This document shows positions 1-3,000 of a DNA stretch of 4,057 nucleotides, piece after piece (position 1 is the first letter of the stretch; every line of letters starts with the position of its first letter). The position numbers were made by a program. Origin of the DNA: a virus (lineage: Duplodnaviria; Heunggongvirae; Uroviricota; Caudoviricetes). Where the stretch lies: the IMG/VR virus record IMGVR_UViG_2537561716_000007. One strand, 5' to 3'.

Positions 1-3000
1 AGTAGCCAGCCCGAGGCGTAAGAACATGACGGCAGGGTTCAACTTTAATAACTATGCAGCAGGTTTTTGTTCCGCTACCCCGGCGTTAAGGGGAAATGAG
101 GTCAACATGGATACGCTCAATCTTGGCAACAACGAATCTCTGGTATGTGGCGTGTTCCCCAACCAGGACGGTACGTTCACCGCGATGACGTATACCAAAA
201 GCAAAACGTTTAAAACTGAAGCTGGCGCGCGTCGCTGGTTAGCCAGAAACACTGACTGATGAGGTTGACGATGGAATTTAAAGATTTACCTCCTTCAATC
301 CAGGAGATTGCAGCACACACACTTCGTCATCGTCTGAACGAACTTGAATTGGAATCGGTAACGAAAAAAGACACTGATAATATGGCTCGTAATGTGCGCG
401 ATGCGTTTACCGGATTGTATTTCTGTGCGTCTATAAATAAACACGACTCAGAGAGTGTGGCAAATAAAATTGCAGAAACGACAGCGCAAAACATCAATAC
501 GAAACCAACGGAAGAAGAAATTGATCAGTTTGCTCATGATGCTGGTTTAAAAAACAAGAAAGAAAAATCGCCATATGCGGGGAACATGTTTGTTTATGAC
601 AATCTCATCAGAATTCGTGGCGAAATTCCGGCGGAATACCTGGCAAGAGTCCATCAGGCATTGCTTAAAAATTTGGAAACAGAATTATTTGATGGCAACA
701 CTAACGGTTTCTTCATGGTATCAGGCCTTGAGAAAGACTGGGATGCAGAAAAACGCTGGAATGTTGCTACATGGTTATTCAGTAACAGAGCCGCTGCACT
801 GGAAGCTTCGGCATGTATTTGCGGCCTGTTCTTAACAGACCACAAATATAATCTGGATGTGTACAGTTATATTTACGCTGAACACGGTCCACTCTGGATT
901 GACTGGTAATTATAAGGAAACACCAGCAGGGCCGCGGCGACCAACAGAACGATTAAAATCAATAATGCCATTATAAAGGACATTATTTAATTTATCGTCG
1001 AATGCTGATTCTGTGAGCCTCAACTCTGAATGAGTTTTTAATAACCCTGATTGCCTGAGTTGATTTACCAGGCATTCAATCTGTTTTTCAATAAGCGGAT
1101 TTCTTTTTTTGTTTGGCATTTTATCCTCCATTGAGGTTCTGGGTTAAAAATGGAGACCAACACGCTGTCACGTGTGGTCGTGCGCCGGACACGGATAAGA
1201 ATCCGGTACTGACAGTTTACTGAAAGGATATTTCCCTGAAAAGTCAGTGCATAACGCGAAAGCGTACGGCGAAGCTCTTTCCCTTAGAAGGCTTGTCGTT
1301 AGATTTCTTCGAACGTGCGCTTCCGGTTGTGGCACTCCGCGAAATGGCGCGGCGGTAAGTATGGCGGGGTTATTCCTTCCCCGTTGAGGACACCGGGTTG
1401 TCAGGTTGACCATACGCTTAAGTGACAACCCCGCTGCAACGCCCTCTGTTATCAATTTTCTGGTGACGTTTGGCGGCATCTGTTTGCCCATGAACTGATG
1501 TCCGCCCTTTTTAAAGTGAATTTTGTGATGCAGTGAATGCGGCTAAGCGCACGCGGAACAGTTAAAGCTAAAAACAGTGTTATGGGTGGATTCTCTGTAT
1601 CCGGCGTTAATTGTTAACTGGTTAACGTCACCTGGAGGCACCAGGCACTGCATCACAAAATTCATTGTTGAGGACGCGATAATGGAAACGTTATTACCAA
1701 ACGTTAATACGTCTGAAGGTTGTTTTGATATTGGTGTTCTGCTCAGTAATAAAGCGTTTACTGAGGATGCCATTAACATGAGGAAATATGAGCCTTATCT
1801 GCTCAATGATAATTCCATTCTTTCCCGAATTGCCCTTATTAAACTTGGTATTTTCGGAGAACGTCAATGACTTCAGCATTTGCACTGGTGATGACGGTTT
1901 TTCTTATAACGGGTGAATCACAGAATGTGATTACCGGAATTTATGCCAGTAAAGAATCCTGCCTCCAGGCAAGAGACGAGCAAAAAATTTCTGGTGAATG
2001 CCTCCCGGTAAAAAAAGTATCGCTGTACCTGAATAACGAAACACCGGCTGGATAACCCTCCAGCCATATTAACACCATACCAACGGATTAAAAATGCCAG
2101 CAATGGCAGGGATTTGTTCACCCTTAAATCTGTAATGAGGTTTATCAATGAGCACTGATAAAGAAGAATTTGCGCTATATTGCGAAGCAAAAAATGACAA
2201 AGTCAGAAAACGTCTGGGAATTAAAGGTGGTTTTTACTGGACTACAGCAAAAAAATTATCTGTTGCCATCTCCCGCTGCATTACCGCAATGGATGACAAC
2301 GATTATGATGAAGACGACTTTAAAAAACCCGTTCGCGTCCATTTACCCGTTGTGAATGACCTTCCACCTGAAGGCGTGTTTGATACCGAATTCTGCAACC
2401 GATACGAAAAAGGCGGGGAAGATGGCATTACAATGGTATTTATCGCGCCCTCTCCCTCCGTGCAGGAGAAACCAGCCAGTACTGACAATACCAACGTCAA
2501 CGGCGAAGACATGACGGAGATTGAGGAGAATATGCTCCTGCCGGTTTCTGGTCAGGAGCTGCCCATTCGCTGGCTTGCGCAACACGGCAGCGAAAAACCA
2601 GTAACGCACGTTGCACGGGAAGAACTTCAGGCATTACATATAGCACGGGCGGAAGAACTGCCGGCTGTTACTGCCCTGGCCATTTCTCACAAAACAAAGC
2701 TGCTCGACCCGCTGGAGATTCGCGACCTTCACAAACTGGTACGCGACACTGACAAAGTTTTCCCTAATCCCGGTAATTCAGACCTGGGACTGATAACTGC
2801 TTTTTTCGAGGCATACCTGGACGCTGACTACACTGATCGGGGTCTGCTGACAAAAGAGTGGATGAAAGGAAATCGTGTTTCGCGTATCACCCGTACGGCT
2901 TCCGGTGCAAATGCCGGTGGCGGGAACAAAACCGATCGCAATCCGAATTTAGTACACACCTTCGATACGCTGGATGTGGAGATTGCAGCAGCCACACTTC

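Follow-up and report, generated by a model that had tools for sequence, protein, structure and literature searches.

DicF is among the oldest known bacterial small RNAs (sRNAs). In Escherichia coli K-12, it is processed from a polycistronic transcript that starts at dicBp, upstream of ydfA, as described by Northern blots, primer extension and reverse transcription-polymerase chain reaction (RT-PCR), with RT-PCR products extending from ydfA to dicF and primer extension providing no evidence of an internal promoter (PMC10448788). A 190-nt species of the RNA requires RNase III and a 53-nt species RNase E (PMC10448788), and its 3' end is generated either by Rho-independent termination (53 nt) or by RNase III cutting of read-through RNA (72 nt) (PMC5069750). 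The 3' region of K-12 DicF pairs with the ribosome-binding site of ftsZ and also with pykA, and its 5' end is needed for the regulation of xylR (PMC5069750). In enterohaemorrhagic E. coli (EHEC), four copies of dicF have been reported (PMC7873438, PMC5069750). The present study concerns positions 1140-1512 of a 4,057-nt window (the whole stretch of DNA that was analysed) from the Caudoviricetes record IMGVR_UViG_2537561716_000007, which a preliminary description had singled out as a candidate sRNA. Our analysis suggests that this stretch represents the untranslated central part of the dicBF operon in a Qin-like O157 prophage, consisting of a structured leader followed by dicF, a reading to which we assign a probability of about 0.9.

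The candidate sRNA is the already known gene dicF together with its known precursor region, an identity that is based on a match in Rfam, on the identity of the 5' end and on synteny with the dicF locus of K-12. The Rfam search that had been proposed in the preliminary description returned a full-length match to RF00039 (DicF) at 1458-1507 on the + strand (43.5 bits, E = 2.1e-7). Allele comparison and folding define the gene as a variant allele of dicF at 1457-1512 (+), whose single-stranded 5' region (1457-1471) is the same as in K-12, with identity running through 1476, and whose first 20 nt, UUUCUGGUGACGUUUGGCGG, agree fully with both K-12 DicF and the allele that predominates in a table of 125 related loci. 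In the upper part of the terminator hairpin (1472-1506), the window allele contains GGCGGCAUCUGUUUGCCCAUGAACUGAUGUCCGCC, compared to GGCGGUAUCAGUUUUACUCCGUGACUGCUCUGCCGCC in K-12, and both alleles fold as terminator hairpins that are followed by five T residues, in the window as a U-tract at 1508-1512. Downstream of dicF, dicB begins after 170 nt, and a ydfA-like gene encoding a DUF1391 protein and a repressor gene are found upstream, in a position orthologous to K-12. Among 5426 complete E. coli genomes, 290 carry the window allele at an identity of at least 99%, each in one copy, and the listed carriers are mainly O157:H7 with at least one O103. In an O157:H7 genome, one of four DicF-like places harbours this allele, in agreement with the four dicF copies published for EHEC. 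The hairpin is variable in general: the DicF terminator hairpin (1472-1506 in the window; loci L229, L236, L243 and L205) occurs in at least six sequence types, in which the GGCGG/CCGCC base is kept while upper stem and loop are swapped. A genome-wide pattern scan with the DicF seed was discarded, as it returned mostly chance matches in unrelated phyla, with about 17 expected by estimate for 18 specified bases in 596 Gb.

The surrounding genes place the locus in its genomic context. Within the queried stretch 1100-1720, the window is 99.7% identical to the chromosome of E. coli O157 AR-0430 (locus L001, where the window position equals the L001 position minus 7901), in a region that forms the early-left arm of a lambdoid prophage in a degraded state. 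On its + strand, a LexA-family (CI-type) repressor is followed by DUF1391 (ydfA-like), a 212-aa hypothetical protein, an unannotated gap, dicB, DUF1482 (ydfD-like), a RecE pseudogene and an integrase fragment. The same layout is found in the dicBF operon of K-12 Qin, which proceeds from dicA through ydfA, ydfB, ydfC, dicF, dicB and ydfD to an exonuclease and an integrase fragment, and which aligns with the window at 1179-1786 with 91% identity and DicF equally placed in both. By gene order and sequence, the window is a dicBF operon, the early-left operon of a lambdoid prophage of the Qin type in E. coli O157.

The features that had drawn attention to the stretch are all confirmed at the positions given. 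Its GC content of 0.525-0.545 in 1201-1500 exceeds that of its flanks (0.385-0.46), it contains no substantial + strand open reading frame (ORF), the sole one being a 46-aa ORF with a GTG start (1247-1387), and the 9-bp perfect stem is present as described, with GGGTTGTCA (1395-1403) being perfectly complementary to TGACAACCC (1423-1431). Equally, the 3' hairpin followed by C and TTTTT (1507-1512) has the properties of a + strand terminator (-17.3 kcal/mol, z = -2.8), and its absence from the list of a simple terminator scan is explained by the bulges in its stem. The fold of the whole + strand is better than that of dinucleotide shuffles (z = -3.5, none of 100 as good), compared to a z of -2.5 for the - strand. 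The proposal of an sRNA was correct in that the locus is non-coding, structured on the + strand and equipped with a Rho-independent terminator, as would be expected for a locus yielding an sRNA, although this RNA is not new but DicF. Concerning the 9-bp stem, its mere occurrence is unremarkable, with two 9-bp inverted repeats found compared to about 0.7 expected (an estimate for 591 nt with no distance limit), and it is its conservation and covariation in relatives that shows it to be more than chance.

This stem is part of a larger element, here termed module B, a conserved structured RNA at 1331-1445 (+) that is recognized by our covariance model R1 with 138 bits. The tested structure comprises three hairpins, P1 (1337-1341/1348-1352), P2 (1365-1369/1379-1383) and P3, which consists of the 9-bp stem and its extension by 1404-1405/1417-1418, and it includes as candidate pairing a possible pseudoknot between 1359-1364 (GUAUGG) and the P3 loop at 1410-1415 (CCAUAC). 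In 43 non-redundant sequences, 95% of the cells are paired, and for 11 of the 27 pairs both partners vary, a number that was reached in none of 500 shuffles (3.7±1.3), and controls in which the structure was slid along the sequence gave 1-5 pairs over both alignments (2-5 with the 43 non-redundant sequences). A second alignment, built with the covariance model from 96 further hits that amount to 43 distinct rows and, as a model-fitted alignment, leaning towards the tested structure, also showed 11 of 27 such pairs (4.8±1.2 in shuffles, 0/500) and 46 covarying cells (11.5±2.5 in shuffles). Of the nine pairs of the 9-bp stem, six covary. Since the sequences were gathered by an exact match to the P3 loop, the invariance of this loop is partly by construction. 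The support for the pseudoknot comes from one position, where most rows have U-A, U·G is seen in four rows that seem to represent three or more lineages, the clade of phage P1 has C-G, and C·A does not occur. We consider this interaction plausible but not proven. A search of Rfam 15 found no match to module B with E<1 on the window and only noise (E 1.6-9.6, 11-18 bits) for module B of the window and of phage P1; the weak Rfam hits to mir-43_2, mascRNA, gut-2, nuoG, RyhB, isrB and tmRNA_permuted were treated as noise. The fold of module B is thus conserved and supported by covariation, and apparently undescribed. We assign it to the + strand based on the direction of the operon, the T-tract and the RNA species of K-12.

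Module B is not confined to dicBF operons. Stx2c phages, phage cdtI and 2H10 contain it with 89% identity, and P1, P7 and SJ46 with 78-82% identity. In the latter group, GenBank marks a 'dicF-like region' (AF234172 feature 68791-68892) within the leader of the ban operon, located just behind the C1-controlled promoter Pban. A second pattern scan in viral contigs revealed many more variants, and 511 plasmid records of Escherichia, Salmonella, Klebsiella and Shigella contain the module, largely on apparently P1-like phage-plasmids of ~90-100 kb. In P1 and P7, it follows Pban and the C1 operators by ~30 nt. In lambdoid phages, it is oriented like the cI- or DicA-type repressor gene that precedes it at a distance ranging from a few hundred nt to ~0.95 kb, and genes such as kil, dicB, rdgC or rha come next. 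Of the 134 distinct segments compared downstream of the module, 131 contain an intrinsic terminator within ~40-80 nt of P3 (in six cases up to ~100 nt and in one ~150). These terminators include that of K-12 DicF, the window allele and its relatives, a Stx2c type without the DicF 5' seed and an unrelated P1 type, and they are highly variable, with most keeping the GGCGG/CCGCC base. Because a terminator follows in nearly every segment, the conserved unit is module B plus terminator, which has its K-12 counterpart in the stable 190-nt long DicF.

Several observations made during these searches are recorded here in their own right. A P7-like module B (L169 4666-4804) carries a G-rich insertion of ~25 nt with partial duplication in the P2 loop and still scores 81.5 bits; it is either an assembly artefact or an insertion tolerated in this variable loop. 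Downstream of the ban-leader terminator of P1 (L161 2634-2738), a weak match to permuted tmRNA (RF04321, 24.1 bits with a cut-off of 47, E = 0.004) is probably noise. Finally, sequences of DicF and module B of the E. coli type were encountered in records assigned to Veillonella and Collinsella, as contigs of metagenome-assembled genomes (L024, L029, L038), and in those of Aeromonas phage AP1 and an Actinobacillus phage (MT713136, PP818812), which likely reflects contamination, chimeric assembly or mislabelling of the host.

With respect to function, module B constitutes the 5' two-thirds of the 190-nt long DicF and a candidate regulatory RNA of phage early operons, since its covarying fold recurs in P1 and P7, has no Rfam entry and is always followed by a terminator. 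In our ranking of its roles, it may above all form the body of the ~190-nt RNA, conferring stability or acting as a functional domain, next serve as an element controlling read-through in cis, and last be a mere determinant of processing. As a tentative proposal, which we regard as possible rather than probable, module B would be an uncatalogued structured RNA of temperate enterobacterial phages, lambdoid as well as P1-like, with three hairpins and a pseudoknot, that together with its fast-evolving terminator forms a regulatory unit, either as a cis switch for read-through into dicB, kil or ban or as the body of the ~190-nt RNA, and the 53-nt DicF would be a lineage-specific derivative of the terminator arm.

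A narrower version of this proposal, in which module B and the terminator act as an attenuator or antiterminator in cis, comparable to the put RNAs of phage HK022 or to a riboswitch, to determine whether RNA polymerase from the repressor-controlled early promoter enters the toxic genes dicB, kil and ban, with DicF being only the fast-evolving arm of the terminator, is the alternative that survives best, although we consider it doubtful. It would account for the proximity of a terminator of variable sequence and mostly retained base in 131 of 134 segments, for the location of the module near an early promoter in P1 and P7 and near a repressor gene in lambdoid phages, for downstream genes that include dicB, kil and rdgC, and for a conserved and covarying fold with invariant loop sequence, and the put RNAs are likewise two-stem structures located just after early promoters (PMC9378689). 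However, the comparison with the immunity and put region of HK022 yielded only chance-level short matches and no hit of model R1 (L166, L167), and the consensus offers no conserved alternative pairing with the terminator of convincing length, the options being restricted to 4 bp. Moreover, 0.6-1 kb of genes separate promoter and module B in Qin-like prophages, and the invariance of the loop is in part an artefact of the pattern search by which the sequences were collected.

The difference between the alleles of DicF bears on their targets. When the 3' part of DicF was paired with positions -25..+1 of the K-12 ftsZ leader (L160), with shuffles as control, the K-12 RNA reached -19.5 kcal/mol, with 7% of the shuffles being as good, compared to -11.3 kcal/mol for the window allele, where 71% of the shuffles were as good or better. 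This restricted comparison replaced duplex energies of full-length DicF and ftsZ, which were uninformative since long duplexes form non-specifically. The window allele is accordingly predicted from the energy calculation to have lost the pairing with ftsZ, which speaks against a K-12-like action on this target but not against homology. In K-12, the nucleotides pairing with ftsZ are contained in the hypervariable part of the DicF hairpin. By its sequence, the window copy is predicted to keep the 5' seed that is needed in K-12 for the regulation of xylR, and its regulation probably extends to no more than a subset of the targets of K-12 DicF. It could be argued that such changes reflect decay, and that the copy is a non-functional remnant of dicF in a defective prophage, as suggested by the degraded state of the latter with its RecE pseudogene, integrase fragment and nearby insertion sequence (IS) elements, by the Rfam score below cut-off and by the lost complementarity to ftsZ. 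This explanation is improbable in light of the at least 99% identity of the allele in 290 genomes, of a terminator hairpin that is stronger than in K-12 DicF (-17.3 vs -15.9 kcal/mol), of the intact 5' seed and module B, and of related hairpin alleles in other phages, all of which resembles the replacement of an allele with its structure kept.

The expression of the window copy can be modelled on its K-12 counterpart. The preliminary description had assumed that, with the preceding gene located on the opposite strand, any transcript ending at the terminator has to arise within the stretch, a view that is not supported: same-strand operon genes are located further upstream (107-259 and 271-909), and a promoter-like site, TTGACC-17-TAAACT, is found outside the window between the repressor and the ydfA-like gene (L001 7800-7828, 73-101 nt before the window start). 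The promoter prediction that had been suggested detected no + strand sigma-70-like site in 900-1900 by a consensus scan. An independent transcript start within the stretch is unsupported, because no promoter-like site is found inside, because operon genes and a promoter-like site are located upstream and because no internal promoter was found in K-12. The corresponding alternative, a separate sRNA gene with its own promoter within 1132-1200, could invoke the opposite orientation of the preceding annotated gene and the ancestral promoter-proximal layout implied by P1, P7 and some lambdoid phages, in which module B directly follows a promoter, but it conflicts with the scan, with the lack of conservation of 1140-1178 in relatives that do conserve the leader, and with the continuous ydfA-dicF transcript of K-12 (PMC10448788), and we thus rate its chances as very low.

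In analogy to K-12, transcription would instead originate from a pL-like promoter that is under repressor control and precedes the ydfA-like gene, and it would in part stop at the DicF hairpin, which would serve as intrinsic terminator and as attenuator before dicB. RNase III would cut near 1320 to release a stable RNA of ~190 nt containing module B and DicF, with the putative 5' end of this long DicF at 1314-1324 (+) obtained by arithmetic from K-12, where DicF at L002 4282-4333 places the start at about L002 4144, equivalent to window ~1320. RNase E would cut at ~1457 to generate the short Hfq-binding DicF. The 53-nt species would by analogy start at window 1457, and the site corresponding to its 5' end is contained in the AU-rich loop AAU|UUUC of a weak hairpin (1449-1470, +) with nearly invariant columns. 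Conservation with relatives extends to the sequence surrounding the putative cleavage sites. In read-through transcripts, RNase III would cut in a duplex formed by a 19-bp perfect inverted repeat (1517-1535/1646-1664), which closes the spacer between DicF and dicB (1517-1664, +) and which is the probable source of a 72-nt DicF 3' end and of a processed dicB leader. This repeat is also the closing stem of a match to STnc100 (RF02076) at 1505-1714 that scores 36.1 bits, below the cut-off of 47. The spacer aligns along the whole model including the closing long-range stem, and K-12 scores 34.4 bits, but both values remain below 47, and the element is the dicB leader, outside of the flagged stretch. 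Within this leader, AACGTCACC (1624-1632) is perfectly complementary over 9 nt to the DicF 5' seed GGTGACGTT (1462-1470). An interaction between the two was dropped as a candidate, as the leader is unchanged in 16 loci where nucleotide 12 of DicF is A or T.

The part of the leader preceding module B, termed module A (1179-1325, +), is restricted to DicF-linked lambdoid prophages. It is predicted to form hairpins at 1192-1205, 1206-1250, 1254-1265 and 1266-1299, the last of which (V1) has a variable top that is occupied by several distinct cassettes, all but one of those shown folding on a conserved base ACGGC/GTCGT. Still further upstream, 1140-1178 is a lineage-specific spacer between the - strand gene at 910-1119 and the region homologous to the K-12 leader, with K-12 and most relatives aligning only from 1179. 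The left breakpoints of homology of the relatives are discrete and located at 1108-1117, 1167, 1179, 1231, 1250 and 1338.

A number of findings weigh against our interpretation and define its margins. With 43.5 bits, the window DicF does not reach the gathering cut-off of RF00039 (48 bits), compared to 76.7 bits for K-12 DicF in the same test. The shortfall is due to the replacement of the upper hairpin, and since this cut-off is operational, the membership of the window copy is argued from homology and synteny. A conservation of stems rather than codons, which the preliminary description had proposed to look for in homologous islands, is found in module B but not among close relatives, as 69 DicF-linked sequences contain 0 (RNAalifold) and 3 (pair counting) compensatory pairs, no better than shuffles. 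The RNAalifold consensus of this set even broke the terminator, and with a column identity of 95% its sequences are too similar to test structure. The proposed structure of module A draws solely on thermodynamics and on cassettes that preserve hairpins. The asymmetry of wobbles in module B, with 27 G·U vs 23 A·C cells, does not fix the strand by covariation. Expression, processing and Hfq binding of the window copy are presumed to be as described for DicF of K-12 (PMC10448788, PMC5069750), from which strain this part of the model exclusively derives, and the - strand gene between the upstream operon genes and the leader could hinder read-through from the operon promoter. The loss of ftsZ pairing is predicted by an energy calculation. 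Directly shown in this study are the homology and synteny with K-12 dicF, the fold of the terminator, the non-coding character of the stretch and the covarying fold of module B.

The weakest alternative, a 107-aa protein encoded on the - strand at 1168-1491, could refer to an uninterrupted ORF with ATG start and to similar antisense ORFs carried as hypothetical proteins in some phage records, but is dismissed with near certainty, as just two of 79 homologous rows, the window and a near-identical twin, have an uninterrupted frame, its ATG falls into the loop of an allele-specific hairpin, insertions of 1 nt break it in relatives, as the majority state at 1276 (65 of the 79 rows) and 1306 (73) and also at 1378 (36), its variable columns are spread evenly over codon positions (25/24/26, no third-position excess), and it has neither a Pfam or PHROG match nor a RefSeq annotation. 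The preliminary description had already noted the odd composition of this ORF, and the coding-type conservation on the - strand that would have spoken against an RNA is absent from the 79 rows, so that we judge it to be no gene. Antisense 'hypothetical protein' ORFs annotated over module B in phage records (L164 2534-2728, L165 2494-2700 and SJ46) look like the same artefact.

The remaining genes of the window, identified by a scan of its ORFs against Pfam and PHROG, complete the picture of the operon. On the + strand, the DUF1391 (ydfA-like) gene (107-259) is followed by the gene of the 212-aa protein, which belongs to phrog_2151 (271-909). The 69-aa gene at 910-1119 on the - strand has a full-length match to phrog_4274 (E = 1e-51) and a strong Shine-Dalgarno sequence, and it is a small insert of opposite orientation within the + strand early-left operon rather than an operon boundary. 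Compared to K-12 Qin, the phrog_2151 protein and the - strand phrog_4274 gene stand in the place of ydfB and ydfC. Downstream of the leader, the next operon gene is dicB, encoding a cell-division inhibitor (1682-1870, +; Pfam DicB over its full length, E = 1.3e-35, and RefSeq), succeeded by the DUF1482 (ydfD-like) gene (1867-2055, +), a fragment of a RecE-family exonuclease (Exonuc_VIII, 2148-3392, +) and a C-terminal integrase fragment (Phage_integrase, 3374-3925, +), the latter two being pseudogenes in RefSeq. Both pseudogenes adjoin IS elements and nleG7, and the prophage is defective.

Collectively, there is nothing new in the flagged sRNA itself, as DicF is known and its multiple copies in EHEC are published, and what extends beyond the literature examined is only the leader fold with its covariation, common to P1-like phages. 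Our results nevertheless illustrate that annotation with Rfam at the gathering cut-off misses the window allele. As the altered portion of this allele is precisely the one by which K-12 DicF pairs with ftsZ, functional differences may exist between the four DicF copies of EHEC, which bears on studies of DicF-dependent virulence and filamentation.

The relation of the locus to described systems can be summarized as follows. With putL and putR of HK022, module B shares a multi-hairpin organization of ~70-110 nt and its placement in early transcription from repressor-controlled promoters, in a temperate enterobacterial phage without N-type protein there (PMC9378689). It differs in its three hairpins and in the terminator that is always close behind, and the two resemble each other solely in position and overall form. 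The kinship with the ban leader of P1 and P7 is manifested in compensatory changes in P2 (G-C to U-A), in P3 (U-A to C-G) and in the proposed pseudoknot (U-A to C-G), in an intrinsic terminator after module B and in a repressor-controlled promoter upstream, whereas the terminator itself is unrelated (GCCCAUC-UUCG-GGUGGGC), the DicF 5' seed is missing, the promoter is only ~30 nt away, and tRNA genes, tciABC and ban are located downstream in place of dicB. Compared to K-12 DicF, the upper two-thirds of the window hairpin are of another sequence and two nt shorter, and the window shares with it the slot in the operon between ydf genes and dicB, flanks that are ~91% identical (1179-1786), the single-stranded 5' part, a terminator hairpin and U-tract, the upstream leader and the downstream 19-bp duplex.

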